This document shows, piece after piece, positions 3,029-57,638 of a DNA stretch of 60,232 nucleotides. Numbering within the stretch: position 1 is the first letter of the stretch; each line of letters starts with the position of its first letter. Both the position numbers and the translations under genes were made by a program. The notes under the pieces were generated by a model, which did not search any database, was not told the DNA's origin, and worked only from the letters and a program-made list of their open reading frames with translations. This stretch comes from a virus. Its lineage: Duplodnaviria > Caudoviricetes. The stretch covers positions 1-60,232 of IMG/VR virus record IMGVR_UViG_3300045921_000410; one strand, given 5' to 3'.

Positions 3029-3029
3029 T

Positions 3030-6166: not shown

Positions 6167-6672
6167 ATTTTTTTATTATCCAACCAAATTGATCCCTCTG
6201 GAAATAATTGATTATATGCCTGCTCACCTAGAATTTTTTTTGCTCGATTAGAATCAGCTCTGGTCACTCCGTCAATATCAAAATTGTAAATTTGATTTTT
6301 ATGATTTTCTATAAGCTTTTCCATTTCTTTGATATATGGAACAAAATGTTCTTTATTAGGTAACTTATTAATTTCTTCTATTTGTCTCTCTGCATGTTCA
6401 ATGACCATTTGATTCTGATGATTTATTAATTTTTGATAGTAACTCTCTATATTTTTCTTACTCGCCAATTCTTGTGGAACGAATTTATTTTCTTTGATTG
6501 ATTCTTGTATTTTATTTATTATTTGCCCCGGTGCCAAAATAACTTCCGATCCATGTTTCCAAAAAGAAGTTACATTTAATGGTAAATTATATTTTTTTTG
6601 TTCTTCTACTGTTTCGCACTGACAAAAAATATAAGGTTTATCATTTATTGTTCCAACAATTTGTTCAATCAT
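6163..6672 (-). CDS. Hypothetical protein
   Basis: 169-aa ORF translationally coupled to neighbours. Confidence 0.6.
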   Translation of the reverse strand: MIEQIVGTINDKPYIFCQCETVEEQKKYNLPLNVTSFWKHGSEVILAPGQIINKIQESIKENKFVPQELASKKNIESYYQKLINHQNQMVIEHAERQIEEINKLPNKEHFVPYIKEMEKLIENHKNQIYNFDIDGVTRADSNRAKKILGEQAYNQLFPEGSIWLDNKKI

Positions 6673-7712
6673 AAAATACCTATAACAACTCTATCATATT
6701 TTGGTGCATCTAATTTCATAAAGTTTTTAAGCATTCCTTCCCACTGTTTAATTCTAGCCCCAAATGTCGCACTGGTTGCGGACAAAGTAGTTCCAAAGGA
6801 TTCTGAGATAGAATTTAAGTTTGCACTGGAACTAGCTATAGGACCAAGAATACCATCACCAACATCATCTAATAAGTAAATCCCGGCTATAATCCTAATA
6901 ATATTTATTAAATCTTTTGGAACTTGATCTGCAAATAAATAACCGGACATATAGTCTGCAAATATCGCTTGTGGGAAATCTTTAAAAGGATATTTAAATT
7001 GATATATCTGAGGAGTTCTACCACCAAGCACAAACAAACTACTTGTAAGCTGAGAAGGAAAAAAATTAGAATAACCATTTAAACCTAAAAAATCTTGTCG
7101 AAATGGAAAAATATTAACTAATCCTGTTTGGATCGGATCTAGTATTTGAGCGGAAAAAATTTGAATTGTCGGTCTACCACGCCAAAGAGTAAATAAATAT
7201 TGTTTTGAGTTTGCCTCTCTGTAGGGATAACCCGGTTCCCTAACTACACGAGTATTTTTTTGATACTGATTCATTTGATCTAAATACTGTTGTAGTTTGA
7301 TTGGAATCGTTCCAGTTAAATAAGTATCGGATTTAATGTATTGTCCGTTTTCATCTTTTGGAGGTGGTTGCCTTTCTATAGACTCTCCTGTGTTTGGATT
7401 AATAGGATCAGCGTACAATCTGATTTTTGGTAAAATATCTATATTTAATGACCGTTCTACGATACCAATAGCGTTATCTATAAAATACCATAAATTCTCA
7501 TCGGTCATTGTAGTGTTATCAACACTTGCTGTAAAATCATTACCAAAACCTACGTTATATCTTAAATCATCTGGGGTGAGAGGACATCCAAAATCTGGAA
7601 AATACCTATTATGCCAATCAGGTCTATTTGTTGGTGATGTGGGATTGTCAAAATAGTATCCCGTTCGACCGTTTAATTTAGATGATCTATTTAATAATGG
7701 ATTTATTTCCAT
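6669..7712 (-). CDS. Putative head-tail adaptor (neck) protein
   Basis: WYFIDNAIGIVERSLNIDI and C-terminal S.S..SISES..T..SA..A.FGARI pattern; position after capsid genes. Confidence 0.6.
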   Translation of the reverse strand: MEINPLLNRSSKLNGRTGYYFDNPTSPTNRPDWHNRYFPDFGCPLTPDDLRYNVGFGNDFTASVDNTTMTDENLWYFIDNAIGIVERSLNIDILPKIRLYADPINPNTGESIERQPPPKDENGQYIKSDTYLTGTIPIKLQQYLDQMNQYQKNTRVVREPGYPYREANSKQYLFTLWRGRPTIQIFSAQILDPIQTGLVNIFPFRQDFLGLNGYSNFFPSQLTSSLFVLGGRTPQIYQFKYPFKDFPQAIFADYMSGYLFADQVPKDLINIIRIIAGIYLLDDVGDGILGPIASSSANLNSISESFGTTLSATSATFGARIKQWEGMLKNFMKLDAPKYDRVVIGIL

Positions 7713-7727
7713 ATTTACCTTTTAAGA

Positions 7728-7747
7728 AAGAGGGGTTTCCCCCTCTT
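7728..7747 (-). terminator. Intrinsic terminator after capsid operon
   Basis: AAGAGGGG-GAAA-CCCCTCTT followed by TCTT on the minus strand. Confidence 0.7.
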
Positions 7748-8129
7748 AGAAAAACCCATACCAAAAAGTAAGGGGATTTGTTACTGCTCCGACACTTTTA
7801 ACTGTTGGAAGAGTAAAGCTTCCAAAGACAATCAAAGCACTATCAATTTGTAACGGAACTGAATTGCCACCGTGTGCAAATTCTAAAGTTCCATTTCCCG
7901 ATTCGATCCAAATAACAAAACCTTTAATAGGTGAAACTCCGTTTGTATCTAAAGCAACCGGGTTTCCCGAATTATCGCCATCTAGTATTTTTCTTTTTGT
8001 TAAACCCGAAAAACTGTCCAAGCCTGTAACAGACTTGAACATTTGATTTAATTGTTTCGAAAATACTACTGTATTATTATCTTGATCGGATATTACAATT
8101 TGACCGTTTACTTCCGATTTTAAAGCCAT
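7746..8129 (-). CDS. Putative virion (decoration) protein
   Basis: Beta-rich 127 aa in the capsid operon. Confidence 0.45.
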   Translation of the reverse strand: MALKSEVNGQIVISDQDNNTVVFSKQLNQMFKSVTGLDSFSGLTKRKILDGDNSGNPVALDTNGVSPIKGFVIWIESGNGTLEFAHGGNSVPLQIDSALIVFGSFTLPTVKSVGAVTNPLTFWYGFF

Positions 8130-8138
8130 GACTTTACC

Positions 8139-8423
8139 TTACCAAACCAAAAGCGTCAAATTGACATCATTGACATCGCATCGAATAGAAATTGTTGAAT
8201 CAGTCCATTCTTGTGAACCATCATAAACAACCCCATTTTTGTCTTTTCTTACTACCAAATATCCTCTGGGAATATATCCGAGATCATGCGATATTGAAAC
8301 ATCTTCGTCTTGTACTGCAGTTTCTACAGTATAGTAACGTCCCTCTGTGATACCCACAAATTTTGATTTAGTTTCGTTTTCCAAAACTCGCTCTGTATTA
8401 AATGCTTTATCTGCTGTACTCAT
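8139..8423 (-). CDS. Putative virion protein
   Basis: SHDLGYIP motif (H-x-L-G-x-x-P, typical of fibre/decoration beta domains). Confidence 0.45.
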   Translation of the reverse strand: MSTADKAFNTERVLENETKSKFVGITEGRYYTVETAVQDEDVSISHDLGYIPRGYLVVRKDKNGVVYDGSQEWTDSTISIRCDVNDVNLTLLVW

Positions 8424-8797
8424 TGTACTGTTACTCCTTGATCCATATCATATCCAACCTCAATAAAAAACCCTTTTGCAATAACGCCATTCCCGCTAAA
8501 CCTTACCCCGCCTTCGATTCTAATTGGAGAGAATCCATACTCAATTAAAGTATTTGCGGGAATGTTTGAAATAATTGGTGTATTGTCACCATCCAAAATA
8601 TTCCCGATATTCGTTGCAAAATAAGATTCTAAAAAAACAATAATCCTACTATTTGCACTTGTTAGATTTCCTGGGAAACTTGGTGCATTTCCAGAAACCA
8701 CAAATTGATTATTTACCTTAGCGGTCTCTAAGTCCCTCTTAGATAAAGAGGGACTCATTGAATACTTAGGTAATCCGTTTGCTCTACCTATTGCCAT
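8420..8797 (-). CDS. Putative virion (decoration) protein
   Basis: Immediately downstream of the major capsid gene. Confidence 0.45.
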   Translation of the reverse strand: MAIGRANGLPKYSMSPSLSKRDLETAKVNNQFVVSGNAPSFPGNLTSANSRIIVFLESYFATNIGNILDGDNTPIISNIPANTLIEYGFSPIRIEGGVRFSGNGVIAKGFFIEVGYDMDQGVTVQ

Positions 8798-12371: not shown

Positions 12372-14318
12372 TTACTTCTTTTTAATTACATTGGTAGTCT
12401 GGTCTATTCCATGTCCAATTTCTGTTCCTACTGATTCAGTTTTTTCACCGGACAAACCATCTGCAATAATATTTGCTAAACCTTTAATAGCTGAGACAAA
12501 CGCCTCTTTAGAAGTTTTAGGAAGCCTGGAAAGCGGATTTTTTGTCTTTGGTTCTGTTTCTTGCTTTACTCTCTCCCACTTTCTATCTGACACTTTTTTC
12601 CATTTACTTCCATCTCTCCTAGTTGATATTGTTCCAATATCTGAACCTTTACCAGATTTTTCTAAATTCTCATATACGTATTTTCTATTCTGTAACCCAT
12701 GAGATTTTCTTAAAGAATTAAACTCTTCATTATTCGCCAAATAATAAGATTTAAACTGGTCAATATTCATGTATTCAATAGAGTGAAAAAAAGAATCATC
12801 GTCATAATGTCGATAAAACGTTTCCATAACTTCATCATCATTATTAAAGCCAAAAAATACTTTTTCTTCATCTATCTCACCAGTAAACGGGTCTTTTATG
12901 GTTACGACATAAACGTGGGGAGAGTTTAGATAAGAGCCTAAAAAACAATCGACTTCTTCTCCGTCCATTCCAACTGTATTTTGTACATACCCATACGGGT
13001 AGTCCATAAAAGTAAACCAATCCTCTCCGCTTCTAATAGAGCCGGTTGGATTTTCAATAGTTATAATAAATCCATTAAATTCAATTTCTTCCGTTACTGG
13101 TCTAGGTTCAGGCACTTTTACAAAAGCGTACGTTCCATCTGGTCTGGAAATATATTTAAAAGATTTTGCTAAAGCTGATGGTCTATTTATTTGCCGATAA
13201 GCTTGCTTAAAAGTCTTAGCCGGATTTTCTGTTTTTACTCCCATAGAATCCGCTACTTTATTAACATATACATTCAATCTTTTTAATACTTGCTTAATAG
13301 TGTTATCGTTAGTTCCTAAATTTTTAGCAATTTCTTTAGATTTCTTACCGGCTAAGTATTGATTGAAAATCGTAACGCCTCTTTCTTTAAACGAACTCAC
13401 TTTATTTGATTTAATTTCTTTTATGACTGCCGAATAAATGTCATCTACTTTTTGTTTTGCAACTATTGAAAGTTGTTTTACTTCTTGTTCACTGGCTTTT
13501 TCTTCCGCTTGAATTGTTTCTACGAAACTATCAATTGCATCTCCTATAGATTTATTTTTATTTGTTCGACTCATGTTTCTACCAACATTTGAAAATATTG
13601 TCGCAACATAAGAAGGGAATTTTTCTAAGGCTACATTCTGGAAACTACCTCGATCTTGTAGCTCCATAAGCTTTATAGTAGCTTCTTGAATCAAGTCATC
13701 AATCTCATAACCATCGACATTTGATTTTACAAAAGCGTATGCAAGCGTCCCAGGTTCAGTATAAGAACCGGATACTTTTACTTTCGCTATTTTTTTTATT
13801 CCACTGGGAGTAACAATGGTTTTTTCTTTAACTTGTGCTCCTTGCCAAAATCTTTCTTGAATATAATTAACTAATGTATTAACGTCCTTTCCTTTAATTT
13901 TAGAAAATTCATCCTCAGTGGGTTTTAGTTTATCGTACCATTTGTTGGATTTAGAAATTCTCTTCTCTTTACCTCCTATATCTCCGTCTGGTCGTACCCA
14001 TACGACTCTATTAAACGTTTTTCCGTTTTTACTTTTTACTTGAACTATTTTTTGAACAAGCCCCGGTCTTGCTTTTTGCAAAGTTTCTTTACTACTTTCA
14101 ATCAAAGCATTTTGTAGTTTTTCAAACCTTTTGAATGTTTGCCCAAGCTTAGAATCTTGATTTAATGGTTCATCATCAACTATATTAAATTTGTCGTATA
14201 TGAATGACCCGTCTTCTTTTAACAATCGGTACTTTTCATTTTCATAATCTACAATCACACACTTATCTTCATTGACAGTTCTTACTACTTTTCCATACAT
14301 TTGAGAAATTACGTTCAT
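12372..14318 (-). CDS. Polyvalent-type protein: ECF-like sigma70 domain plus InPase domain
   Basis: Region-2-like EIDDLIQEATIKL...FPSYVATIFSNVGRN; region-4 HTH GKKSKEIAKNLGTNDNTIKQVLKR; InPase-type ITIENPTGSIRSG...YPYGYV..TVGMDGEEVDCFLG...DEEKVFFGF. Confidence 0.75.
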   Translation of the reverse strand: MNVISQMYGKVVRTVNEDKCVIVDYENEKYRLLKEDGSFIYDKFNIVDDEPLNQDSKLGQTFKRFEKLQNALIESSKETLQKARPGLVQKIVQVKSKNGKTFNRVVWVRPDGDIGGKEKRISKSNKWYDKLKPTEDEFSKIKGKDVNTLVNYIQERFWQGAQVKEKTIVTPSGIKKIAKVKVSGSYTEPGTLAYAFVKSNVDGYEIDDLIQEATIKLMELQDRGSFQNVALEKFPSYVATIFSNVGRNMSRTNKNKSIGDAIDSFVETIQAEEKASEQEVKQLSIVAKQKVDDIYSAVIKEIKSNKVSSFKERGVTIFNQYLAGKKSKEIAKNLGTNDNTIKQVLKRLNVYVNKVADSMGVKTENPAKTFKQAYRQINRPSALAKSFKYISRPDGTYAFVKVPEPRPVTEEIEFNGFIITIENPTGSIRSGEDWFTFMDYPYGYVQNTVGMDGEEVDCFLGSYLNSPHVYVVTIKDPFTGEIDEEKVFFGFNNDDEVMETFYRHYDDDSFFHSIEYMNIDQFKSYYLANNEEFNSLRKSHGLQNRKYVYENLEKSGKGSDIGTISTRRDGSKWKKVSDRKWERVKQETEPKTKNPLSRLPKTSKEAFVSAIKGLANIIADGLSGEKTESVGTEIGHGIDQTTNVIKKK

Positions 14319-14319
14319 T

Positions 14320-17300
14320 TTACTTTACCTCTACCTTTCTTTCAAAATTAAAATCTAAATTAAATTTTATTCTACCTCTGGGAGTAACAACTTCCGTAAA
14401 AAAGTCTTCTTGCGTTTTACTAACTTTTTGGAAAGACGTGCCTTCGTACGCTTTACCTTTGTCCTCTCCTGTCGTAAAAATCATCTGGTTATGTCCTTGA
14501 TTTACAAAAACGACCGAATCTTGGTTGTATTTTGCTCCTAAATCTATCACTTCGGACTTTTCTGCTTCTGGCAAAAAGAAAATAAAACTTTCTTCTTTTA
14601 AACCTTCATAAGTTCCTATTGCTCGAACAAACTGAAACCCCATCTTAATTAAATCTTTTTTTAAATCTTCATCTCTCTTAGAAATTTGTTCATCGGTAAG
14701 TTCCATATCTTCTTTAATTTTAGGATTTCTTCCCGCCGATACAATTCCAATTTGTCCATGTTTAAGTAAAGTTTCTATTTCACTTATCTTTAAATTTATT
14801 TCTTTTCCCTCTCCTGGTTTTCGCATAATTTTAAATCGTAAATCTGCGGAAATTTGTATTCCGTCTTTTTTAAATTCATCTTTAGCTTCTTTGATTTTGG
14901 AAATATAATCTTTAGCTATTTTTATAGCTTTTTCTTTTTCCGCCTGGGAAAGGTTACCGCTTGAAATTACTTTGTCAATTTCTATTAACTTTTCAATCTC
15001 ATTTGGTTTTGCATAAGAAGGAATCTCTCCAAAATGTTTTGATTCTCTAAATTTTATAGATGGTGGTGCCTCTCCAATTTTAAACCAACGATTTACTCGA
15101 TTTCCTCTTTTATCTCGTACAGGTCTTAACTCCATTCCCGGACGAACTGCCTTCATTAATTCATCTTGGAAGTCTTGATCAAAATACATTAAAAAATCTA
15201 TTAAGAAATCCACGCCCTCATTAATGACTGATTTTTGTAAATTTGCTACTCTTGCTTTTTCTTCTCCGGTAACTTGCCCCATGAATCTAATTTTTGACAA
15301 ACTTTCCTCATTAAACTTACCGGATTCAACTGCATCTTGTCCTTTTCTACTTAATGCTTTTTTAATATAGCTAAATGCCATTTTTGGCTGTGTTCTAATT
15401 AAATCTGACATTAAATAATCTTTACCACTAATAGTTATATTTGCATCTTTCCAGTACACGTTAACATTTGGAATATCACCTGGGGTAAATGGAACATGAC
15501 TCAAAAATTCTTTAAACGATTTAAACTTTACACCTTGTCCTTTTTTCTTTTCTATAACATTAGTTGGTTTTTGTAAAATATTGTAGTCCATAACTTGTCT
15601 ATTATTCGCTACAACTTTTGGCAACGGTAAATCCGAATTACTATTTATAATTTCTTTGGCAACCGATTCCGAATCTACTGATTCTACAAGTGCCAAGGTG
15701 TCCGCATTAATTCGAGAATAATCACCCTCGACTGTGGCACCTAGAGTAACTAATTTTGTAGCCATTACCGATTTATTCCAGTTATCTATTGGATGATCTA
15801 CATACATTAATTCGACAAAAGCGGGTGACTTAGTGTTCTTTCTATTTATTCTTCCTAGAACTTGTACAAAATTATTTGCGGAAAAAGGTAAGGAAGTTAA
15901 AAACATTCTTCTCGGCTTATCACCTTGTACGTCGTCAAGACTGATCCCAGTACCTCCGGACTGAGGAGTTGTAATAAAAACCTGTGCTTTACCAGATTGA
16001 AACTGGAAAACGCCTGTTTTATCTTTCTTACTTCCAAAATAATCAACTACCTCAATCCCTTGTGCTTTTAATCCATCTGAAATAGATTGTAAGACTGCAT
16101 CGTGGCTGTATGATTGACTTCCTTCTTTTCCAAAAGTAGTATTGACTGTTTCGTTAGTTCTTGCTCCAACGATTACAACTTGTTCGCCGTTTTTAATTGA
16201 TTCAATAGTTCTTTTTATTGTTTCTTTTGCTTTAAACGATTCTAGCATTCCTCTTAACTTCATTAATCCCGTGGCTTTGGCTATTCCACGAAACATTGGA
16301 TTTTCTATAGAATCAATATAATTCTCATAATCGTTGTAAGCTTGATTAAAAGTATCAATATACTCCTCTGGAATAGAAATGTCATTTATATTTGTTTTTA
16401 AATTTTTTAATTCAACTTCTCTTTTTACTGCCAATCCTCGATCTGTTATTGTATTAAAAAATGCTTCTATTTTTTCAGCTACGTTTTTGTAATTATATCC
16501 GGATTTAGGCTCATAAGATATTTTTATAGTTCCATCGGATTTTTTATATTCCCTACTTGTCATTCCAATCATATCCATTAGAGAACTAAAGTTTATTTGT
16601 AGGGCACTCGCTATGTAGTGTAAATGCTCCGGCTTATCGACCGGAGTAGCTGAGAACATTGCTACATTTTTGGCACCCAAAATAAACTCCAATCCTTGTT
16701 TGGATTTCTCACTATCAGAATTTTTTAAATTATGCGATTCATCAAATATTACTAAATCGTATTCTTTGCCAATATTTTTTAACATAGAATAAGTAGTTAT
16801 ATTAATTTCACCCGATTTACCCTCACCTGATTTAATTCGATTTAAACTCGAACCCATTATTTTAGCATCAGTATTAAAAGCGTTTGTAATAATAGATTCT
16901 GATTCAGTAACAATTAAAATTTTTGCATTCGGATTTTCTTTCAAATACGTTTCTGCTAAACCAATCTCTTGTCTTGTTTTCCCGGTGCCTGTACCATCGA
17001 AATTTAAAATAGTTTTGTTATCTTTTTTAAAATTGTCAATAGCAAGATTTACAAAATCTCTTTGTGCTTTGTTTATATGTTTAAGAAGGCTGTCGGGAAC
17101 GTAACTATTTTCTGGGATGACGGTGTTTGTCCATCGCCCGAGTTTATATCCTTCTTGTGAGTACTCTTGGTCGCTTGTAGCATATCGTACATTAGGTTGG
17201 ATTCGCTGATTATTTGATCCCGCACTTCCTCCGGCATGCTCATCAGTTCTTTCAATTCGTTCTCGAACTGAGGGATTTCTTTCACCATTTGTTCTAAGCT

Positions 17301-17442
17301 CATTTCCTTCAACGGGTTCTGTGTTTCCATTTACATTACTCTCCTTTTCTTCTTTAATTGATACGTTTACTGTCTTGTAGTGTCCTCGAACTTTACCAGT
17401 TGCGGGAATCCAAACTCTTTTTTTAATTAAATTACTATTCAT
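14320..17442 (-). CDS. Polyvalent-type protein: SF2 (strawberry-notch-like) helicase plus C-terminal DUF3293-like domain
   Basis: DGTGTGKT, DESH, SAT, QSGGTGISL, QVLGRINR; C-terminal IVSAGRNP...GTY...EESF...LGAKYNQDSVVF. Confidence 0.75.
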   Translation of the reverse strand: MNSNLIKKRVWIPATGKVRGHYKTVNVSIKEEKESNVNGNTEPVEGNELRTNGERNPSVRERIERTDEHAGGSAGSNNQRIQPNVRYATSDQEYSQEGYKLGRWTNTVIPENSYVPDSLLKHINKAQRDFVNLAIDNFKKDNKTILNFDGTGTGKTRQEIGLAETYLKENPNAKILIVTESESIITNAFNTDAKIMGSSLNRIKSGEGKSGEINITTYSMLKNIGKEYDLVIFDESHNLKNSDSEKSKQGLEFILGAKNVAMFSATPVDKPEHLHYIASALQINFSSLMDMIGMTSREYKKSDGTIKISYEPKSGYNYKNVAEKIEAFFNTITDRGLAVKREVELKNLKTNINDISIPEEYIDTFNQAYNDYENYIDSIENPMFRGIAKATGLMKLRGMLESFKAKETIKRTIESIKNGEQVVIVGARTNETVNTTFGKEGSQSYSHDAVLQSISDGLKAQGIEVVDYFGSKKDKTGVFQFQSGKAQVFITTPQSGGTGISLDDVQGDKPRRMFLTSLPFSANNFVQVLGRINRKNTKSPAFVELMYVDHPIDNWNKSVMATKLVTLGATVEGDYSRINADTLALVESVDSESVAKEIINSNSDLPLPKVVANNRQVMDYNILQKPTNVIEKKKGQGVKFKSFKEFLSHVPFTPGDIPNVNVYWKDANITISGKDYLMSDLIRTQPKMAFSYIKKALSRKGQDAVESGKFNEESLSKIRFMGQVTGEEKARVANLQKSVINEGVDFLIDFLMYFDQDFQDELMKAVRPGMELRPVRDKRGNRVNRWFKIGEAPPSIKFRESKHFGEIPSYAKPNEIEKLIEIDKVISSGNLSQAEKEKAIKIAKDYISKIKEAKDEFKKDGIQISADLRFKIMRKPGEGKEINLKISEIETLLKHGQIGIVSAGRNPKIKEDMELTDEQISKRDEDLKKDLIKMGFQFVRAIGTYEGLKEESFIFFLPEAEKSEVIDLGAKYNQDSVVFVNQGHNQMIFTTGEDKGKAYEGTSFQKVSKTQEDFFTEVVTPRGRIKFNLDFNFERKVEVK
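17073..17330 (-). CDS. Candidate overprinted small helical protein nested in the helicase linker
   Basis: AAGGAG 10 nt before the ATG; amphipathic-looking sequence; locally higher GC. Confidence 0.4.
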   Translation of the reverse strand: METQNPLKEMSLEQMVKEIPQFENELKELMSMPEEVRDQIISESNLMYDMLQATKSTHKKDINSGDGQTPSSQKIVTFPTAFLNI

Positions 17443-24250: not shown

Positions 24251-25024
24251 TTATGCTTCGACTAAATCGTTAGCAAGATTTAATAGTTTTGTGTTTAAAT
24301 CGACAAGTACCTCCATAGATTTAATTTTTCTAGTTCTTCTTAACTTGCCTTTTTTCGAAACAATATGCAAGTTTCCCCTAACCAACGACTCTTGAACTCG
24401 ATTCAAAACATTCCAAAGATTGTCTTCTTTTTGTTCAAAGTGTAAGCATCGCACAGATTCTTCTACAGTACTTTGATTGAACTGCTCTGAATCGTATCTT
24501 AACTCGATAGCTTTTTGAGCGAAAACTTTTACTTGTTCTGGGGAAAGAACTTTTTCCTCGAAACGTCTAATTCCATTTGCAAATTTATTTACCAGTAAAT
24601 CGAACTGAGAAATAAATGTTTTCATCGCTTGAAATCCGTTTTCAGAGTGCCGGATCGAAATTGCATTTCCTTTTCCCAGCATATCTTTGGAAAATAACTG
24701 GTTAGCACAAGCCACGACCATACATCCGATAAACAACTGCAAACCGGAAGTACCGTTATGAGAATTCCGAATGCAAAACTGAATTGATTTCTTGCCATCA
24801 CGAAAATTTGGATGTTCCATGATGATTATATGTTTCTGAAAACCATCGATTCCTCGCTCGATAGATTTCTTTCTTAAATTTGCCTCACCGGTTCTAACCA
24901 CGTTCCAACCGTATTTTTCGGCTTCTTTGATAACTTCCAAAGTAGAGATAAATCTATATTTATCTGTACGATCAGAATGCTTACAAACCGCCAAAGCTGA
25001 TTTTGGTAAAATTGATTGATTCAT
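24251..25024 (-). CDS. DUF932/DUF945-family protein
   Basis: FISTLEVI...GW...GFQKH...NSHNGTS.LQ..GC.VVACAN. Confidence 0.8.
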   Translation of the reverse strand: MNQSILPKSALAVCKHSDRTDKYRFISTLEVIKEAEKYGWNVVRTGEANLRKKSIERGIDGFQKHIIIMEHPNFRDGKKSIQFCIRNSHNGTSGLQLFIGCMVVACANQLFSKDMLGKGNAISIRHSENGFQAMKTFISQFDLLVNKFANGIRRFEEKVLSPEQVKVFAQKAIELRYDSEQFNQSTVEESVRCLHFEQKEDNLWNVLNRVQESLVRGNLHIVSKKGKLRRTRKIKSMEVLVDLNTKLLNLANDLVEA

Positions 25025-25050
25025 TTTATTTATTCTCCTGTTATTAATAT

Positions 25051-25076
25051 AAGTAAAACAAATTAAAAAAGTGTCG
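25051..25076 (-). promoter_or_regulatory. Island promoter repeat copy 3
   Basis: CGACA-N16-TACTT followed by AGGAG RBS. Confidence 0.75.
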
Positions 25077-25080
25077 TCAC

Positions 25081-25119
25081 AAAAAAAATCCTCCCAAGGT
25101 TTTTAATCTTGGAAGGATT
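25081..25119 (-). terminator. Intrinsic terminator
   Basis: AATCCT(c)CCAAG/CTTGG(a)AGGATT stem plus U-tract. Confidence 0.75.
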
Positions 25120-25125
25120 CTGAAA

Positions 25126-25449
25126 TTAAGCTCCGTACTCTCTGCGATAGTGAGAGTAAGATTTTCCTCGACTCCCTCTCCAATAAGAGGCATATGAATC
25201 AGCGTTTCTTTCGTTGTGCTCTTTAAGCTCCTTACTGTATTTCCATCGGGCAATTTGCACAATTTCACAGAACTCTCTGTAATTTACAATTTTCCCGATT
25301 TCTGCATAGGCTTGAGGAATTGTCTTACCGTTGACATCGATAGAAAATAAAAGATTTCCATCCGAATCCTCACCATAAACCGTAATGGTTTCTTGATATA
25401 AATCAACCGAACTATCTAGTTCAATATTTTGTTTTTCTACTGTTCTCAT
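25126..25449 (-). CDS. Hypothetical protein (island cassette)
   Basis: Start MRTVEK follows the repeat RBS; MKEVKT in the ORF track is the translated repeat. Confidence 0.7.
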   Translation of the reverse strand: MRTVEKQNIELDSSVDLYQETITVYGEDSDGNLLFSIDVNGKTIPQAYAEIGKIVNYREFCEIVQIARWKYSKELKEHNERNADSYASYWRGSRGKSYSHYRREYGA

Positions 25450-25499
25450 CGTTTTTACCTCTTTCATTTATAAAAGTAAACTAAAAAAAAGTGTCGCTT
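25447..25499 (-). promoter_or_regulatory. Island promoter/RBS repeat copy 4 (spacer 3 nt short)
   Basis: GCGACA-N13-TACTT with a T8 spacer tract. Confidence 0.7.
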
Positions 25500-25503
25500 A
25501 GAA

Positions 25504-25534
25504 TAAAAAAAAAGGGAACCAAATCGGTTCCCTT
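25504..25534 (-). terminator. Intrinsic terminator
   Basis: AAGGGAACC/GGTTCCCTT plus U-tract. Confidence 0.8.
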
Positions 25535-25539
25535 AAATC

Positions 25540-26409
25540 TCATATTAAAGCTTTTTTCAAAATTTGCAATCCATAAGCGTTTTCACTTTCCAAAATTGGA
25601 AGCAAGTCTCGGACTGCAATTTCTTTTGTATTTTCCAAGCCATACTTTTTACAAAACTCATTTACTCCAAAACTACAAGCCCCTGTGATTTCAGAGTAAA
25701 GTCTTCTTGTCATCTTAGTATCTAAAGTGACATTGTTGAGCCGAAAGTATTTTTTGACTGATTTATCGATTTTTTTGTACAAACCTTCGATCGCGTCGCC
25801 CCATGAAATTTCAGAGTGATATGCAAAATTCCCACGAACCGCAATCTTAACTCTTTTTGCTTCAATGTCTCGACCATCTTGCACAAAAACTTCCGCATCG
25901 ATCAAAGTGATTCCTTGTTTCACGGTTTTTGAGTAAATCTTTTTATTGATAATCCCGTCAATCACAAGGAATTTTCTGGGAACGCTATCAATGTCCGATA
26001 GACAAAAATTAACACTGTAAATCGATTGTGAGTTTAAGTACTTGCCTGACTTGGCAGTTTTATATCTTTTAAGCAATTCGAATTCTTCATCGCTTGCAGT
26101 AAAAACTGTTCGGTTTTTGGTGATCGCAAGGAACTTAAACTTTTCCAAAAATAACTCAGAAAGAATAGAAACCTTGGACAAATTGTACCTATCTCTCAAA
26201 GTTTCAAATTCTGCATCTTTGATTTGTTTTCTTTCGGCTCTTTTTTGCATGACAGTTTTTGCAAACGCCAAAGACTCTTTTTGCGATACATTTACAAGAT
26301 TTTGTGATTTGTAATTTTTGCAAAATTCGCAAATGTCTTTTTGTGTTAATTTTTCGGAATTTACACAAAAATCGTATAAAGCTTTAAAATATTTAGTATC
26401 TGTTTTCAT
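25540..26409 (-). CDS. Hypothetical protein
   Basis: 289 aa; C-terminal ITGAC.FG...FC motif; its RBS is the 3' arm of the ribozyme stem I. Confidence 0.75.
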   Translation of the reverse strand: MKTDTKYFKALYDFCVNSEKLTQKDICEFCKNYKSQNLVNVSQKESLAFAKTVMQKRAERKQIKDAEFETLRDRYNLSKVSILSELFLEKFKFLAITKNRTVFTASDEEFELLKRYKTAKSGKYLNSQSIYSVNFCLSDIDSVPRKFLVIDGIINKKIYSKTVKQGITLIDAEVFVQDGRDIEAKRVKIAVRGNFAYHSEISWGDAIEGLYKKIDKSVKKYFRLNNVTLDTKMTRRLYSEITGACSFGVNEFCKKYGLENTKEIAVRDLLPILESENAYGLQILKKALI

Positions 26410-26417
26410 CGTTTTGT

Positions 26418-26478
26418 ACCTCAGACCATTCCCAGTTGCATGGGAAGGTTTCGCTTATTTAAAGCTCATCAGTGAGGT
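26418..26478 (-). ncRNA. Type I hammerhead ribozyme
   Basis: ACCUCA-CUGAUGA-GCUU(UAAAU)AAGC-GAAA-CC-UUCCCA(UGCAAC)UGGGAA-U-GG-UC-UGAGGU: intact catalytic core, three stems, GUC cleavage triplet. Confidence 0.9.
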
Positions 26479-26479
26479 T

Positions 26480-26656
26480 TTAGAATTGCTCAGTGATATG
26501 AGCGATAAATGCTTTTTTATCCATTACTCTTTCCACAACCCCGTTTTTGTTGAGCAATCCATATCTGGTCTTGTAACCAGTTATAAACGAAAATCTTTCG
26601 TATCCAAAACGGTTATTTGCATTCTCAATTATTTGATTTAATTCTGTTTTGTTCAT
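26480..26656 (-). CDS. Hypothetical small protein (island cassette)
   Basis: Start MNKTELN after the repeat RBS. Confidence 0.7.
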   Translation of the reverse strand: MNKTELNQIIENANNRFGYERFSFITGYKTRYGLLNKNGVVERVMDKKAFIAHITEQF

Positions 26657-26709
26657 CGTTTTTACCTCTTTCATTAATGTAAGTAAAACAAATTAAAAAA
26701 GTGTCGCTT
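26654..26709 (-). promoter_or_regulatory. Island promoter/RBS repeat copy 5
   Basis: GCGACA-N16-TACTT...GAAAGAGGTAAAAACGATG. Confidence 0.8.
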
Positions 26710-26741
26710 AAAATAAACCCCGGTTTTTGAACAGAACCGGG
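26710..26741 (-). terminator. Intrinsic terminator
   Basis: CCCGGTT/AACCGGG stem with TTTATTTT on the minus strand. Confidence 0.65.
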
Positions 26742-26758
26742 AAACTGTGTTTGAGAGA

Positions 26759-27114
26759 TCAATCACGATGAAATGATTGCGTTGTGCTGACCTCATCTTT
26801 GTATATATCCGACATACATTCTATTTGAAATACGGGATGGTCTAATTCCTTTTTCAAAGTATGGATTTTTCTTTCTTCCGCAATACCATCAACAATTATC
26901 CAAGTCAACTCTTGATTATTCTCTAAATTTTTCGCATATATTATGTATTCGTATTCTTCTACTTTTTCAACGTGAAACTCAGAATCCATCTGTATAAGAT
27001 CCATTCTAAATTTATGATTTTCGTCTATCTTTTGAACCAATTCCTGATATTTGCAAATAATAAAGATTATTTTTTTAATCTCTGATTGCCATTTTGACTT
27101 AATTTAATTTCCAT
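26759..27114 (-). pseudogene. Island cassette gene with an apparent 1-nt frameshift near the 5' end
   Basis: ATG after the repeat RBS gives MEIKLSQNGNQRLKK-stop; an overlapping frame (KSKWQSEIKKIIF...ELVQKIDEN) is open to 26759; span is 356 nt. Confidence 0.55.
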
Positions 27115-27167
27115 CGTTTTTACCTCTTTCATTTATAAAAGTAAACTAAAAAGAAAAAGTGTCGCTT
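27112..27167 (-). promoter_or_regulatory. Island promoter/RBS repeat copy 6
   Basis: Identical to copy 2. Confidence 0.8.
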
Positions 27168-27526
27168 TAAATTCTGCTTTTAACTTGATTTCTAAAACAG
27201 GCTATGTCTTCCAATTCTAAAATCGCTGAATCAGTAAAACCGAAAATCCAATTGGATTTTATATTATGGTCATTCATAAAAAATTGAATTGTCTCAGCTA
27301 AATCTAAAACCATCGGCTCGATTAAATCTGTTATTGTATTAGCTACTTGATTGTTCATGGGCTGGAAAAGATCATAGTACTGCTCTAAGCTTTTTTGATT
27401 TCCAAAACTATCAAGTATAATTCTATTTTTATTAAGCCTGTGTTTTAAAATAATAACCTGAACATTTTTTAAATTTAGTTTTTGGTCTAAATAATTACAA
27501 AGTTTTTCACTATTTTCTAAATCCAT
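27167..27526 (-). CDS. Hypothetical protein
   Basis: ORF with AGGAG RBS. Confidence 0.65.
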   Translation of the reverse strand: MDLENSEKLCNYLDQKLNLKNVQVIILKHRLNKNRIILDSFGNQKSLEQYYDLFQPMNNQVANTITDLIEPMVLDLAETIQFFMNDHNIKSNWIFGFTDSAILELEDIACFRNQVKSRI

Positions 27527-27531
27527 ACTCT

Positions 27532-27912
27532 TTACTCCTGTTTTTTCAAACTATTCCTATTTACAAAAATCTGTTTTTCATAGTCTGGAATGTCCAGTAA
27601 AATACTTTGCGACAAAATGTATTCAATGACCGCATCTAATAAATCAAAATTTTCAGTTATTTTATCTTCAAAAACTTTTATTTCTACTTCAAACTTAAAA
27701 ATTTTTATTTTTTGTTCTTTAACTGAATTTGGATTTTCTATATCAAAGCTACCATCTGATTTTTCATCCCACCGAACACAGTAAACTAATCCATCCGATC
27801 CTTTCGCAAAACAAACAAGCTCGTATGAATTCTCTTGCAAACTATCTTCTTTTCTTCTCAACTGTTTTATGTCGGGAATTTGTAGACTTATATTTTTATA
27901 ATTTAAATTCAT
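27532..27912 (-). CDS. Hypothetical protein
   Basis: ORF in operon. Confidence 0.65.
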   Translation of the reverse strand: MNLNYKNISLQIPDIKQLRRKEDSLQENSYELVCFAKGSDGLVYCVRWDEKSDGSFDIENPNSVKEQKIKIFKFEVEIKVFEDKITENFDLLDAVIEYILSQSILLDIPDYEKQIFVNRNSLKKQE

Positions 27913-28121
27913 TTTTTACCTACTTTTTTATACTTAAATACGGGTTTAGAAGTCTGGGAAAAATTCCAAAAACAATCTAAACCTAACATTTTATACTCAG
28001 TTATTATTCTGTTTCTTTCCTTTCTAAAATCAAAATCGCTTTTAAATTTAGAACTATCTAATGAGTCGATATTTGTTACCGACCCATCCGCATTTAAAAC
28101 ATTTATGTAAATAATCATATT
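27909..28121 (-). CDS. Hypothetical protein
   Basis: Probable start near MIIYINV, just after the upstream stop; start uncertain. Confidence 0.5.
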   Translation of the reverse strand, partial: NMIIYINVLNADGSVTNIDSLDSSKFKSDFDFRKERNRIITEYKMLGLDCFWNFSQTSKPVFKYKKVGKK

Positions 28122-44353: not shown

Positions 44354-46948
44354 TTAAAATTTTATTTTCTTTGCAGTACCCCAACTGGAACCTGTTTTAC
44401 AATCAACAACCAGCTTGACTTTTTGAACTTGTGGAATTTTAGATTCCATAAGTTTTTTTATTTGCTTTGGAACAAACTTGGTCTCACTGTTATGAACCGC
44501 AAACATAATCGAATCGTGTACTGTAAGAACTGGATATGTTTTAAGCTTCTTAGCTCTCAAATAACCACACACTCTGTTTAAAGCGTGGGTTACAACATCG
44601 GAAGCCGATGACTGTACAGGATAGTTTACCGCTTTTCTAAAAGCTTCGGCAATCCTAAAATCATCTTGTGAATCAAAATCTGGAATCTTAATCTTTCTTC
44701 CAAATAAAGTATTAATATAACCATTTTGTCGAACAAATTGTTTTTGATTATTCACCCAGTTTTTTAAACCGGGATGCTCATTAAAAATAGCTTGAATTAC
44801 CTGCTCTGCTACCGGCACCGTAACACCTAAATCAGCCGATAAACCATATCCTGTTTTCCCATAAATAACAGAAAAACCTATTATTTTTGCTTTAACTCTT
44901 GGCTCTGGGTCACTATAATCGCTCTCGAATTCTTTTGGCAAATATAACTTTCCGTTTGGTTTTGGAATCTTATATTTTACTAATATATTAACTCCATTGT
45001 AAACGTGAGTATCTTGACCACTATTTAATCTATCTATCCAAGGCAAATCTTGTGAGTACTCCGCCGCAATTCTAACTTCTAACTGAGAGTAGTCAAATTC
45101 ATACAGAGTGTACCCTTTTGGGACAACTACACACTCTCTAATATCCGAATCTCTAGGTATGTTTTGAAAATTTGGATTAGAAGAAGATAAACGTCCGGTA
45201 GCTACGCCACTTTCATCACTGCCTGCCGTAGTACCCATGTTAAAAGAAGTATATATTTTTCCTAAAATACTCTTTTCTAAAAAAGTATCAATATAAGTAG
45301 ATTTTAATTTTGCAACTTTCCTATGATTACTTAAAGCTTTACAAAATTTTAATAATTCTTTAACGCCTTTAACTTTAGGAATGGACTCGGCTATCTTAAT
45401 AACTTTAGAAATCGTTTGTTTATCTGTACTCTCTGATTCTAATTTTTTCTTTAAAGATCGATCTTTTACATATTTATAGATGGGCTTTAAAAAATCACGA
45501 TCATATAAAACTTTAACAAGTTGAGTAGGACTGGAAGGATTTAAGTCTTTCACACCGGAAGTTTTTCTAATCTCTTTTTCTAGCTCTACAATTTGCTTTT
45601 CGTACTTATTTTTTAATTCTTGTGACTTTTTTAAATCAATAGAAATTCCCGCATACTCAATCTCACAAAGATTGTACCTTGTCTTATTTAACTCAGGAAT
45701 TAAATTTTTAACACTATGATTTTTTGCTTCTTTTAATTGATTTTCGTAAACTATAAAAGTTCCAACGGTATCATACACACCGTACTTAGCTAAAGGTAAG
45801 GGTGGAATATCTGAATAATCCTTAGACTTACCTTTTTGATTACTCAGATAAAAGTCTAAATCGGACTCATAACCACCAAAATCAGTATAGTACTGAACCA
45901 GTGTTTTTAAGCCATTACCTAAATCATTCAAAACATCATTAACGACTAACGTATCGTATGTATAACCATAAGGCAATATAAAACCGTACTCTCTAAACCA
46001 CTTATACTCAAAGGATAAATTATGAATTATTTTTAAAGATTTTTTAGATTCAATTACAGATTTAATTTTCTTTTTATATTTTTTGTATAAATTACTTTCT
46101 TTATCTTTAATCCATCGTCCCTCTGGGAACTGATCGGACGAATTCAAATCAAAATCCATAAAAGGAAAAAACCAACCAGTTTTTGAGTCTATAGAAAACG
46201 AAACACCTATAATTTTACCGTCTCTATGATTTATACCTTGCGTTTCAATATCTATGACTACTTTACTAGCCGTCTGTAACTTTAAAAACATCTTATCCGC
46301 TTGTATTTCGTTACGAACAAAAACATGTTTTGGTTGTACAAAAGAAATTTTTTTATTTAACACTTCTTTGGCTTTAATCAATGACCTGACTATATTCTCT
46401 GAATTATGAGCCACGTCCCTGGGATGAATTAAGGGCATAACATAACAATTTAAAGCCGGGCTTTTAACTATTTTACCCGACCACTCAGCTATATCGGATT
46501 GATTTAAAATACTTTGCAAAGCAATGTAACCAAGCGGAATAACCAATTTCGGTTTTAGTCTTTCTATTTCTCTATATAAATAAGGTTCGCAATTTCTTAC
46601 TATTTTTTTTCTATCGACAGTTTTTTGAAACCTTATATCACCAGAACCCAAAGAACATCTAGTAAGAGTATCTAAATACACAACCTTCTTATCCAATTTA
46701 GCTTCGACTAACCAACGCCTAATTATAGCTCTCAAACCACCAGATAAAACTTGACCATAATAAATGTCTTCTTTCGTTATACCATCGGTAACAAATAAAA
46801 TATCTACCTGTTCCGATTCTTTTTCAAAATAATTTCCTTGAATACAATTAATTTGAACTGTTGTCATCGGATGACAACGACTACAATAATCGCTAGAATC
46901 AAATTCAACTAATTTATTTTTTAATTCTTTTGTAGTACTCGATGACAT
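44354..46948 (-). CDS. polA: Family A DNA polymerase with N-terminal UDG-like domain and 3'-5' exonuclease
   Basis: CSRC, RC, C.PYL.REI...KPK.VIPLG and HP (UDG family 4-like); IDIET (exonuclease); TGRLSS.NPNFQNIP, DYSQLE.R, R..AK...F...YG and VHD (polymerase). Confidence 0.95.
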   Translation of the reverse strand: MSSSTTKELKNKLVEFDSSDYCSRCHPMTTVQINCIQGNYFEKESEQVDILFVTDGITKEDIYYGQVLSGGLRAIIRRWLVEAKLDKKVVYLDTLTRCSLGSGDIRFQKTVDRKKIVRNCEPYLYREIERLKPKLVIPLGYIALQSILNQSDIAEWSGKIVKSPALNCYVMPLIHPRDVAHNSENIVRSLIKAKEVLNKKISFVQPKHVFVRNEIQADKMFLKLQTASKVVIDIETQGINHRDGKIIGVSFSIDSKTGWFFPFMDFDLNSSDQFPEGRWIKDKESNLYKKYKKKIKSVIESKKSLKIIHNLSFEYKWFREYGFILPYGYTYDTLVVNDVLNDLGNGLKTLVQYYTDFGGYESDLDFYLSNQKGKSKDYSDIPPLPLAKYGVYDTVGTFIVYENQLKEAKNHSVKNLIPELNKTRYNLCEIEYAGISIDLKKSQELKNKYEKQIVELEKEIRKTSGVKDLNPSSPTQLVKVLYDRDFLKPIYKYVKDRSLKKKLESESTDKQTISKVIKIAESIPKVKGVKELLKFCKALSNHRKVAKLKSTYIDTFLEKSILGKIYTSFNMGTTAGSDESGVATGRLSSSNPNFQNIPRDSDIRECVVVPKGYTLYEFDYSQLEVRIAAEYSQDLPWIDRLNSGQDTHVYNGVNILVKYKIPKPNGKLYLPKEFESDYSDPEPRVKAKIIGFSVIYGKTGYGLSADLGVTVPVAEQVIQAIFNEHPGLKNWVNNQKQFVRQNGYINTLFGRKIKIPDFDSQDDFRIAEAFRKAVNYPVQSSASDVVTHALNRVCGYLRAKKLKTYPVLTVHDSIMFAVHNSETKFVPKQIKKLMESKIPQVQKVKLVVDCKTGSSWGTAKKIKF

Positions 46949-57623: not shown

Positions 57624-57638
57624 TTTTGTACTCCTGAA

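Follow-up and report, generated by a model that had tools for sequence, protein, structure and literature searches.

What does a self-cleaving ribozyme do when one of its own helices holds the ribosome-binding site of the next gene? The question is raised by the minus strand of the window, the whole stretch of 60,232 nucleotides of phage DNA that was analyzed, where a complete type I hammerhead of 61 nt, with a full core and three stems, occupies positions 26478 to 26418. The element fills the gap between two phage genes on their sense strand, and the 3' strand of its stem I coincides with the Shine-Dalgarno (SD) sequence of the downstream gene. The features of the locus were assigned from the sequence, the predicted fold and the alignment to R1, a covariance model of 10 viral hammerheads that excludes the one in the window.

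26480 to 26656, minus strand: upstream small ORF, 58 aa from ATG 26656, which is preceded by GAGGU and a 7-nt spacer; an in-frame ATG at 26674 gives 64 aa
26482 to 26480, minus strand: stop codon UAA of this ORF, followed by A26479 before stem I
26478 to 26473, minus strand: 5' strand of stem I, ACCUCA (sequence, fold, R1 alignment)
26472 to 26466, minus strand: catalytic core strand CUGAUGA, C3 to A9 (sequence; aligned to the invariant R1 core and to two Rfam hammerhead models)
26465 to 26453, minus strand: stem II hairpin, G-CUU/UAAAU/AAG-C, with G10.1-C11.1 and three more pairs and the loop UAAAU (fold)
26452 to 26450, minus strand: core G12 A13 A14, GAA (sequence, R1 alignment)
26449 to 26425, minus strand: stem III hairpin of nine pairs including A15.1-U16.1 (A26449/U26425), with one bulged U and the loop UGCAAC (fold)
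26424, minus strand: C17, with predicted scission 3' of C26424 (core alignment)
26423 to 26418, minus strand: 3' strand of stem I, UGAGGU, the SD of the 289-aa gene, paired with 26478 to 26473 (fold)
After the 3' strand of stem I, minus strand: leader ACAAAACG, then AUG at 26409 to 26407
25540 to 26409, minus strand: downstream gene, 289 aa, with its AUG at 26409 to 26407, 14 nt past the cleavage site
25512 to 25534, minus strand: intrinsic-terminator-like hairpin of 10 pairs followed by a T run, 5 nt past the stop of the 289-aa gene (consensus scan)

The predicted cut falls between 26424 and 26423 and would leave a 14-nt leader whose first base lies one before the SD. Hammerhead chemistry leaves a 2',3'-cyclic phosphate on the C17 side and a 5'-OH on the next base, predicted here to be U26423. 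An earlier note on this DNA had described a complete type I hammerhead on the sense strand of the intergenic gap, with the same cut and a 3' product that carries the ribosome-binding site and start codon. Its coordinates and topology agree with the sequence, the fold and R1, and its cleavage site and product with the alignment of the core.

All positions that define the core of the hammerhead class (C3-U4-G5-A6-N7-G8-A9) are present, together with G12-A13-A14, the A15.1-U16.1 pair and a base other than G at position 17. The minimum free energy (MFE) and centroid folds both contain stems of 6, 4 and 9 pairs, with stem II closed by G10.1-C11.1. For an 81-nt piece, the MFE fold is exactly the three-way junction, with an energy of -20.1 kcal/mol and a z value of -3.36, and 2 of 200 shuffles fold as well. 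A loose core pattern matches the window once, at the hammerhead, against 0.18 matches expected per shuffle. R1 scores the element at 55.3 bits (rough E value of 2.8e-10), and this is its sole match at E<=10 on both strands of the 60-kb window.

The Rfam models gave no match in the window at their gathering thresholds. The Infernal search with Rfam hammerhead models proposed in the earlier note is thus negative under curated settings, while the best matches in E-value mode are two alignments below threshold: Hammerhead_HH9 with 24.3 of the 52 bits required, and RAGATH-1-hammerhead with 24.6 of 56.3 bits. At the same gathering thresholds, 10 related loci in which R1 gives 33 matches in all remain without a hammerhead, and absence from Rfam is therefore uninformative. 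Membership in both Rfam families was rejected on these scores and on architecture. The outer extension of stem I of Hammerhead_HH9 (RF02275) is not formed here, as mismatch marks indicate, and the architecture differs; for RAGATH-1-hammerhead (RF03152), the stem II of the present element is a closed 4-bp hairpin. The RAGATH-1 model aligned its extra 5' hairpin to a 5-bp hairpin at 26488 to 26503 (minus strand), within the end of the upstream ORF, the relevance of which is uncertain. Several RAGATH-1-like sequences were also found in the same viral scan.

The element shares its organization with a family of intercistronic phage hammerheads. In this family, an A separates the upstream stop codon from a 6-bp stem I, after which comes the core, and the cut is followed by the stem I strand, an A-rich leader and the start of the next gene. 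All features of the R1 group are found here, namely a stop that abuts stem I, the A, the 6-bp stem I, a 4-bp stem II, a U-N-A-N-U loop, C-G following GAAA and a start no more than about 30 nt away. Covariation was assessed in 65 distinct rows of an alignment that was fitted to the R1 model, where 97.2% of cells are paired, compared with 60.0% in shuffles and 29-39% with slid partners. Double-change cells number 346 versus 93, both sides change in 13 of the 15 pairs, and all 6 pairs of stem I change on both sides across the family. The pairs A15.1-U16.1 and G10.1-C11.1 are kept in 65/65 distinct rows, and C15.2-G16.2 in 61/65. The only other copy of the locus is identical across the ribozyme, so that the site itself provides no covariation. 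Alignment A4 retained 10 of 16 candidates (L004, L020, L059, L069, L089 and L115 were dropped), including L109, which is partly misaligned; misalignment at the 3' end led to the exclusion of two MAFFT alignments, A2 (16 rows) and A3 (11 rows).

Conservation extends beyond the paired bases. Loop II follows the pattern U-N-A-N-U (U1 in 23/23, A3 in 22/23 and U5 in 23/23), which UAAAU fits, and a family member at L098:1317-1389 has a stem II hairpin identical to that of the window next to different stems I and III. Directly 5' of stem I, 60 of 61 members have an A (A26479 here). After stem I, the first base is A in 54 of 61 members, as it is here, and the second is A in 52 of 61 and C here. The base at the cleavage site is C in 102 of 127 members, like C26424, and A in the remaining 25/127. 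In 70 of 127 distinct members, the upstream stop ends -1 to +5 nt from stem I; the gap here is 1 nt. A downstream ORF starts within 90 nt in 107 of 127 members, at a median of 26 nt from the cut and at 19-31 nt in 75 of the 107. The start-codon heuristic mis-assigns a few starts (distances of 2, 2, 11 and 11), which were inspected and left out of the count of close starts. Up to 14 copies occur in 6.3 kb of one contig. This layout of stop, ribozyme, short leader and start supports a role of the family as natural insulators between cistrons.

A look-alike produced by chance, or a decayed motif that does not cleave in vivo, for instance because stems I and II fail to make a working tertiary contact, would be compatible with the sub-threshold Rfam scores and with the bulge in stem III. 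No internal loop or pseudoknot of the characterized kind that could form such a contact was identified in the hammerhead. This explanation is nevertheless highly improbable in view of the R1 E value and the single match in the window, the intact core bases, and the agreement of loop II and the flanking bases with family positions that the secondary structure does not need. Moreover, a second contig keeps the hammerhead intact while its upstream ORF has diverged. The element at 26478 to 26418 is thus confirmed as a genuine-looking type I hammerhead, for which self-cleavage is predicted from the sequence.

The small upstream ORF belongs to no Pfam or PHROG family, and the near-identical contig L003 has GTG in place of its ATG 26656. 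The 289-aa protein likewise has no Pfam (down to E 1) or PHROG family. Only 4 distant homologues of it were found, and its AF2 model, computed from a 5-row alignment, has a mean pLDDT of 68 and retrieves nothing from the PDB with Foldseek at E<=0.001. A search of the viral contigs with this protein returned the same phage only, and blastn of positions 25000 to 28000 against the phage collection gave no match. A search with the alignment of 5 homologues identified 9 further loci, in which the simple parser detected no hammerhead; the element is thus not tied to the 289-aa gene. Downstream, the hairpin at 25534 to 25512, if used as a terminator, would make the cleaved 3' product a monocistronic mRNA. 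The stem III hairpin was also considered as a terminator and was rejected, since the consensus scan flags it on the plus strand only.

The downstream gene is preceded by GAGGU 8 nt before its AUG, and the same motif lies 7-8 nt before the genes that start at 26656, 25449, 29789, 29131 and 14318; SD-like motifs precede 58 of 82 ORFs. Because GAGGU is found at the same spacing before the neighbouring genes, UGAGGU is the real SD of the 289-aa gene, and the pairing of stem I with this SD described in the earlier note is borne out. The 3' strand of stem I being the SD, the SD is base-paired in the uncut RNA. The predicted cost of opening five SD bases is 2.06 kcal/mol in the uncut RNA (211-nt context) versus 0.63 kcal/mol in the 3' product. 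This difference in accessibility, of about 1.4 kcal/mol, is small and context-dependent, and in the 211-nt ensemble the pairing of the SD bases is only partial. After the cut, the complex of the two products is predicted to be held by about -7 to -8.5 kcal/mol. The masking predicted from secondary structure is hence modest.

In a sample that was not chosen by stem I sequence, 60 of the 61 family members with a recognizable SD carry it after stem I, and only the hammerhead of the window carries it inside. Masking is therefore not the conserved function of the family. These observations are accommodated by an active hammerhead that does nothing but separate the cistrons, with the SD brought into stem I by compaction of the leader and masked with no measurable effect, as the cut is fast and ribosomes open stem I. 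We consider this account possible, if rather unlikely. It agrees with the position of the SD in the relatives, with the small masking energy, with the stop codon one base from stem I and with a leader of 14 nt compared with the family median of 26 nt. The sequence of stem I varies freely in the family (6/6 pairs change on both sides), which would make drift into an SD easy. Two points weigh in the other direction, although both are compatible with insulation: the recurrence of the layout in five unrelated contexts, and the finding that engineered versions of the layout gate translation, as reported in the part of PMC7445771 considered here.

The position of the upstream stop raises a further alternative, in which it is mainly the ribosomes finishing the small ORF that open the SD helix. 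Translation of the 289-aa gene would then require translation of the small ORF, and cleavage would be secondary or serve RNA turnover only. By the size of its footprint, a ribosome terminating at UAA would extend over the 5' strand of stem I. Since a single base separates the stop at 26482 to 26480 from stem I, the helix should be melted by terminating ribosomes, and masking could be irrelevant. Stops that abut stem I recur, as described above, across the family (70 of 127 members). Translational coupling as the main explanation is very unlikely all the same: the complete, family-typical catalytic core would be needless, and the SD lies outside the helix in most relatives.

To what extent the layout recurs was determined in a targeted scan for type I hammerheads with CCUC in stem I. 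The scan used a simple parser that accepts contiguous pairs only and undercounts bulged stems; it scored the stem III of the present element as 3 pairs. Ten distinct hammerheads with a CCUC stem I were obtained, and an AUG lies 12-15 nt past the cut in five of them: that of the window, L193, L205, L209 and L212. The last four all fold as hammerheads, and an upstream frame was found in three, its stop abutting stem I each time. Their flanking proteins are unrelated to one another and to those of the window (all E>0.1). L212 was not recovered by R1 at E<=1, and its stem III is weak by the simple parser. With the matched control stem CCCU, none of 7 hammerheads had a start codon at SD spacing. 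The comparison of 4/9 with 0/106 gives a Fisher p of 1.8e-5. Phage hammerheads that are otherwise ordinary thus carry the SD within stem I rarely, but repeatedly.

Simple compaction of the genome could account for this recurrence: the start would have moved beside the ribozyme and stem I would have come to serve as SD, without selection for masking. We tentatively raise the possibility, on balance a doubtful one, of a small recurrent class of natural phage hammerheads whose stem I is built from the downstream SD and in which self-cleavage licenses translation. For the claim that cleavage unmasks the ribosome-binding site, the outcome is mixed. It is favoured by an SD that pairs within stem I and by four unrelated phage hammerheads that share the layout; the modest predicted masking, the single case among 61 in the family and the terminating ribosome that would open the helix speak against it.

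The reading that we prefer, and judge probable though well short of certain, is that of a functional type I hammerhead of a recurrent intercistronic phage family, whose constitutive cutting sets the two cistrons apart and uncovers the ribosome-binding site. Transcription would yield a single RNA with the small ORF, the ribozyme and the 289-aa gene, and in this RNA the 61-nt ribozyme is expected to fold and cut after C26424. The upstream fragment would retain stems II and III at its 3' end, closed by the 2',3'-cyclic phosphate. The downstream fragment would be a monocistronic mRNA that starts with 5'-OH-U-GAGGU, has the 14-nt leader and terminates at 25534 to 25512. Its SD would be freed once the 6-bp helix of stem I, the sole remaining link between the two products, comes apart. 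Activation would thus be constitutive and dependent on processing rather than responsive to a signal. What the sequences establish is the anatomy of the element, its place in a covarying family, the identity of the SD and the repeated occurrence of the layout; self-cleavage, co-transcription, the extent of masking and the use that the phage makes of it are inferred.

The term translation switch, used in the earlier note, overstates the case, as the element has no signal-sensing part and stems II and III are plain hairpins. A cleavage rate that answers to temperature, Mg2+, a protein or a ligand, and so turns on the 289-aa gene conditionally, is extremely improbable. The SD does lie within a helix, and the contig occurs in DNA runs whose labels are hot springs or microbial mat, which makes temperature-dependent folding conceivable; no RNA run was listed as containing this DNA. 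On the other hand, the element has no extra domain in its 61 nt, its stems II and III are minimal, and the family alignment gives no hint of a ligand pocket. A regulated switch is accordingly unsupported for lack of a sensor domain.

Bacterial and phage hammerheads are known in their thousands, yet a 2019 review describes their biological roles as "largely elusive" in the part considered here (PMC6765202). The locus of the window, together with L193, L205, L209 and L212, physically ties ribozyme cleavage to a ribosome-binding site and suggests that cutting may turn on the downstream gene. If translation is indeed licensed by self-cleavage, phage hammerheads would gain a concrete role in ordering or delaying expression within a polycistronic transcript. 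Since the curated Rfam thresholds miss the whole group, annotation pipelines for phages that depend on such thresholds miss these hammerheads too.

Several known systems share parts of this arrangement. In a bacterial 5' UTR, the self-cleaving glmS ribozyme alters downstream expression through the new 5'-OH that its cut creates (PMC6765202, in the section considered here), as the present element may do. It differs in its fold and its dependence on a metabolite, and once cut, its mRNA is open to degradation and expression falls. The glmS case implies that a 5'-OH end need not stabilize the message, and the proposal that cleavage stabilizes the downstream RNA cannot be upheld in general form, the effect of the 5'-OH being host-dependent and the precedent one of destabilization. 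The type I hammerheads of fungal RNA viruses span nearly the whole of a short intergenic region and cut a few nucleotides before the next start (7 nt in a fusarivirus), and the authors link them to translation of the downstream ORF (PMC13725137, as far as that account is considered here). These viruses are eukaryotic and use no SD, and the proposal there is subgenomic RNA formation with cap-independent initiation, not the freeing of a paired ribosome-binding site.

The closest natural relatives are the bacterial and phage type I hammerheads of Perreault et al. 2011 (PMC3088659), which, in the text of that study considered here, have the same core, the same three-stem topology with an open stem I and an intergenic position on the sense strand of phages. 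They flank single genes, and processing of long phage transcripts was proposed for them. In the present element, stem I doubles as the SD of the downstream gene; the text of that study considered here names neither a Shine-Dalgarno sequence nor a ribosome-binding site. RAGATH-1 (RF03152), the best Rfam model alongside HH9, is also of type I, with a short stem I preceded by UAAAA and a phage-like context. In its Rfam consensus, stem II consists of a single pair and a further hairpin lies on the 5' side, whereas the stem II of the present element is of the ordinary kind, with 4 bp and a closed loop.

Engineered type I hammerheads that pair the SD within a lengthened stem I reportedly go back to aptazyme papers of 2008. 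Within the openly accessible full-text literature, an SD in stem I was found only in engineered systems, and the supplementary alignments of PMC3088659 could hold further cases. The devices of PMC7445771, in the part considered here, are synthetic, built on a scaffold of the Schistosoma type whose stem I is extended, and made ligand-dependent by an aptamer on stem III. The present element, by contrast, is natural and has a 6-bp stem I and no sensor. The central arrangement is the same: the devices control translation in E. coli from the 5' UTR, with the SD paired in stem I and freed by cleavage for the start of translation (PMC7445771, same part). If self-cleavage does license translation at the phage loci, they would represent the natural counterpart of these synthetic ribozymes that mask a ribosome-binding site.

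The hammerhead lies on the minus strand, which also carries essentially all long ORFs of this 60,232-bp IMG/VR virus record (completeness estimate 66%; GC ~31%). Phage genes recognised in the window encode a portal protein, the large terminase, an SU10-type capsid protein, a family A DNA polymerase and helicases. The gap between a small ORF and a 289-aa gene is 70 nt long and is filled, in order, by the parts of the ribozyme. The features of the locus, taken from the ORF list for the two genes and from the sequence for the ribozyme, are as follows.

26656/26674 to 26480, minus strand: upstream small ORF
26482-26480, minus strand: stop codon UAA of the small ORF, then A
26478-26473, minus strand: stem I 5' strand, ACCUCA
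26472-26466, minus strand: core strand CUGAUGA
26465-26453, minus strand: stem II, 4 bp, with loop UAAAU
26452-26450, minus strand: core GAA
26449-26425, minus strand: stem III, 9 pairs with one bulged U
26424, minus strand: C before the predicted cut
26423-26418, minus strand: stem I 3' strand, UGAGGU
Between stem I and the AUG at 26409, minus strand: ACAAAACG
26409 to 25540, minus strand: downstream 289-aa ORF
25534-25512, minus strand: terminator-like hairpin directly 3' of the 289-aa gene

For an 81-nt piece, both the MFE and the centroid structure match the hammerhead junction exactly, with a folding energy of -20.1 kcal/mol (z -3.36; 2 of 200 shuffles as stable). A loose core pattern occurs in the window at this site only, with 0.18 occurrences expected per shuffle. 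The earlier note had described a type I hammerhead here, and its coordinates, topology, cleavage site and 3' product sequence are all correct when read on the minus strand. Pfam and PHROGs gave no recognisable family for the 289-aa protein, and comparison of its AF2 model with the PDB by Foldseek gave no recognisable fold.

Several other minus-strand features of the window were observed. In a 1040-aa protein (14320-17442), a helicase of the ResIII/SNF2 type is joined to a C-terminal S-adenosylmethionine lyase domain (PF23780, 28.2 bits, at the threshold of 28); the protein could be an anti-restriction fusion. A 648-aa protein (12372-14318) has an InPase (inorganic pyrophosphatase) domain, and the family A DNA polymerase (44354-46948) bears an N-terminal uracil-DNA glycosylase-superfamily domain. 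A perfect 32-bp hairpin (57634-57725; -44.2 kcal/mol, z-score -7.4) is located just 5' of the RBS that serves the ORF with its start at 57623; the hairpin's 40.6-bit match to the plant MIR319 precursor model is surely due to shape alone.

In an Infernal search with the Rfam models, proposed in the earlier note as a check, the hammerhead site is not called at curated thresholds, and in E-value mode the two best matches at the site are hammerhead models, both far under threshold (HH9, 24.3 bits versus 52; RAGATH-1-hammerhead, 24.6 bits versus 56.3). Relatives were sought in viral contigs with the pattern UAAAA, short gap, CUGAUGAG, gap, CGAAAC, which returned at least 118 stretches; many of the matches listed are type I hammerheads in which stem I has 6 bp and stem II resembles that of the element. 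A covariance model, R1, was built from the 10 of 16 candidates that were cleanly aligned by MAFFT, leaving out the window sequence. Its one match in the window at E<=10 is the hammerhead site (55.3 bits, E 2.8e-10, with rough calibration). Applied to the fetched loci, R1 gave 78 matches in a first set, 65 of them distinct, and later 118 additional matches.

The helices of the R1 family covary strongly. Across the three helices of the first set, 97.2% of cells are paired, versus 60.0% in shuffles and 29-39% with the partners slid; double-change cells number 346 versus 93, and all six stem I pairs vary on both sides. The alignment was fitted to R1 and favours the structure, and the slid controls use the same alignment. 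Rfam 15 at gathering thresholds calls no hammerhead in ten loci (L080, L085, L098, L079, L051, L154, L143, L170, L139 and L109) where R1 gives 33 matches in all, the sole Rfam matches there being one Flavo-1 RNA and one tRNA. The curated cut-offs miss the phage type I group entirely. We conclude that the element belongs to a genuine and recurrent group of type I hammerheads in phages, and infer that it cleaves itself.

Element and family also have in common a loop II pattern and flanking A residues that are not required for secondary structure. Among the 23 distinct members whose stem II has 4 bp and whose loop has 5 nt, loop II follows the pattern U-N-A-N-U (U1 in 23, A3 in 22 and U5 in 23); it reads UAAAU in the element. 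In a sample of 61 members not selected by their flanks, stem I is preceded by A in 60, as in the element, the first base after it is A in 54 (element: A) and the second is A in 52 (element: C). The hammerhead at L098:1317-1389 has a stem II hairpin identical to that of the element; its stems I and III are complementary and differ from those of the element. The sole other copy of the locus found has an identical ribozyme and a diverged upstream ORF. A DNA contig from sequencing run X5 agrees with the window as far as 26465 and diverges beyond it; on the minus strand, the 15 letters past this point form another 4-bp stem II, whose loop is U-N-A-N-U, and then GAA. This one short contig hints at a co-occurring ribozyme variant with a swapped stem II. 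The viral-contig scan for relatives also contained a second subgroup (L008, L021, L053, L055, L068, L071, L072, L075, L095, L107 and other loci), in which a CCAGGAG-like sequence lies 5' of UAAAA and stem II is very short, GACUGGAC. It agrees with the RAGATH-1 consensus given in Rfam, and a pseudoknot is probable.

Gene layout was counted over 127 distinct hammerheads, including the window element. In 70 of them an upstream open frame has a stop codon that ends -1 to +5 nt from stem I, and a downstream ORF starts no more than 90 nt away in 107, at a median of 26 nt from the cut (19-31 nt in 75 of the 107). The four shortest distances (2, 2, 11 and 11 nt) are artefacts of the start-codon rule, and the 14 nt of the window element is the shortest credible case among the members counted. 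The typical order is stop codon, ribozyme, short A-rich leader, SD if the phage uses one, and start codon. In L080, an IMG/VR viral contig, R1 gives 14 type I hammerheads in ~6.3 kb (~2284-8613), placed before almost every small gene; most have the stem I GUAAUA/UAUUAC, a strong GGAGG SD follows stem I directly, and several copies have C or A at core position 7. The family layout fits the proposal, made in PMC3088659 and PMC6765202, that phage hammerheads divide long transcripts into single-gene or operon-length mRNAs.

The phage itself uses SD sequences, since 58 of the 82 ORFs of the window have an SD-like motif 4-11 nt before the start. The 289-aa gene (start 26409) is preceded by GAGGUACAAAACG-AUG, the genes at 26656 and 25449 by GAGGUAAAAACG-AUG and the gene at 29789 by GAGGUAAAUAACG-AUG. 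Because neighbouring genes have the same SD version, the stem I 3' strand is the true SD of the 289-aa gene, which bears out the placement of the downstream SD in stem I by the first reading. An identical 21-nt stretch, AUGAAAGAGGUAAAAACGAUG, precedes two neighbouring genes (26676-26656 and 25469-25449, minus strand); both copies contain an upstream in-frame AUG, then the SD, then the likely true start, and it looks like a repeated RBS cassette. Among the 127 hammerheads, 61 have a downstream ORF with a recognisable SD. It follows stem I in 60 and lies inside it only in the window element. SD masking therefore does not account for the conservation of the family.

A scan of viral contigs for hammerheads with CCUC in the stem I 5' strand (GAGG in the 3' strand) returned 38 stretches, of which 10 distinct ones were closed as type I by our own parser; 27 further matches did not close as type I, and in many of them stem I is a hairpin, as it is in type III. 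An AUG lies 12-15 nt after the cut in five of the 10, so that stem I is the SD in the window phage and in the four viral-contig loci listed here.

Viral-contig loci with the SD in stem I
L193: SD GGAGGA; AUG 14 nt after cut; 203-aa gene; R1 35.4 bits
L205: SD AGAGGU; AUG 15 nt after cut; 275-aa gene; R1 44.4 bits
L209: SD GGAGG; AUG 12 nt after cut; 137-aa gene; R1 26.2 bits
L212: SD GGAGG; AUG 13 nt after cut; not recovered by R1 at E<=1

All four fold as hammerhead junctions. The upstream stop codon adjoins stem I in L193, L209 and L212, and no upstream frame of at least 40 codons was found in L205. Their flanking proteins are unrelated to one another and to those of the window (all E>0.1). 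A control scan with CCCU, of the same base composition in a non-SD order, gave 48 stretches and seven distinct type I hammerheads, none with a start at 12-15 nt; starts were found for six, at 27-66 nt. With the window phage excluded, 4 of 9 CCUC hammerheads have the layout versus 0 of 106 in the family sample (Fisher p = 1.8e-5). The SD-in-stem-I arrangement thus recurs independently. The recurrence shows that stem I really acts as the SD in these cases; selection for masking does not follow from it. Compaction, in which the gene start is shifted against the ribozyme and the freely variable stem I is recruited as SD, would give the same picture.

From the sequence, the SD constitutes the closing helix of the junction in the uncut RNA, and once cut, the two products are joined solely by the 6-bp stem I helix. 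The computed cost of opening the five SD bases is 2.06 kcal/mol in the uncut RNA (211-nt context) versus 0.63 kcal/mol in the 3' product. A computed energy of about -7 to -8.5 kcal/mol keeps the cut complex together, which is weak enough for dissociation. Secondary structure predicts a modest masking effect. DNA sequencing runs X1-X6, which contain 97-98% of the sampled words of window positions 25400-27400, come with metagenome labels of hot springs or microbial mat. Should the host live in warm conditions, the masking would be weaker than the helix stabilities calculated at 37 °C suggest. A terminating upstream ribosome should also open stem I, a competing route to the same SD, and the upstream stop codon is one base from stem I.

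In the processing route, the ribozyme would cut during transcription or soon after. With the type I topology, its body would stay with the upstream fragment, and the downstream message, a monocistronic mRNA with a 14-nt leader, would start with a 5'-OH, have its SD free and keep only the six stem I bases. The observation in the earlier note is confirmed and its interpretation is partly supported; a regulated switch is unsupported. The element has no sensor domain and is therefore read as constitutive, processing-dependent RBS exposure rather than a switch. In Gram-positive hosts, a ribosome retained at an SD near the 5' end can protect the mRNA; such protection, if it applies, would suit an SD at bases 2-6 of the product. 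Stabilisation of the message by the 5'-OH end depends on host RNases, and glmS, as cited in PMC6765202, is a case of destabilisation.

Type I hammerheads are known in phage intergenic regions (PMC3088659), and type I motifs are described as usual in bacteria and bacteriophages (PMC13725137); the ribozyme is rated as a new member of this known class. It is of an ordinary kind in an ordinary place. Its layout, rare but recurrent, makes the role of phage hammerheads approachable by a simple experiment. Full-text searches of openly accessible papers, supplements aside, gave no account of a hammerhead in nature with the SD as stem I, and the layout is therefore rated as a new variant among natural hammerheads. 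The SD-in-stem-I design is already known from an engineered device in E. coli, as described in PMC7445771. Among fungal RNA viruses, according to PMC13725137, there are type I hammerheads filling an intergenic UTR and cutting 7 nt before a start codon.
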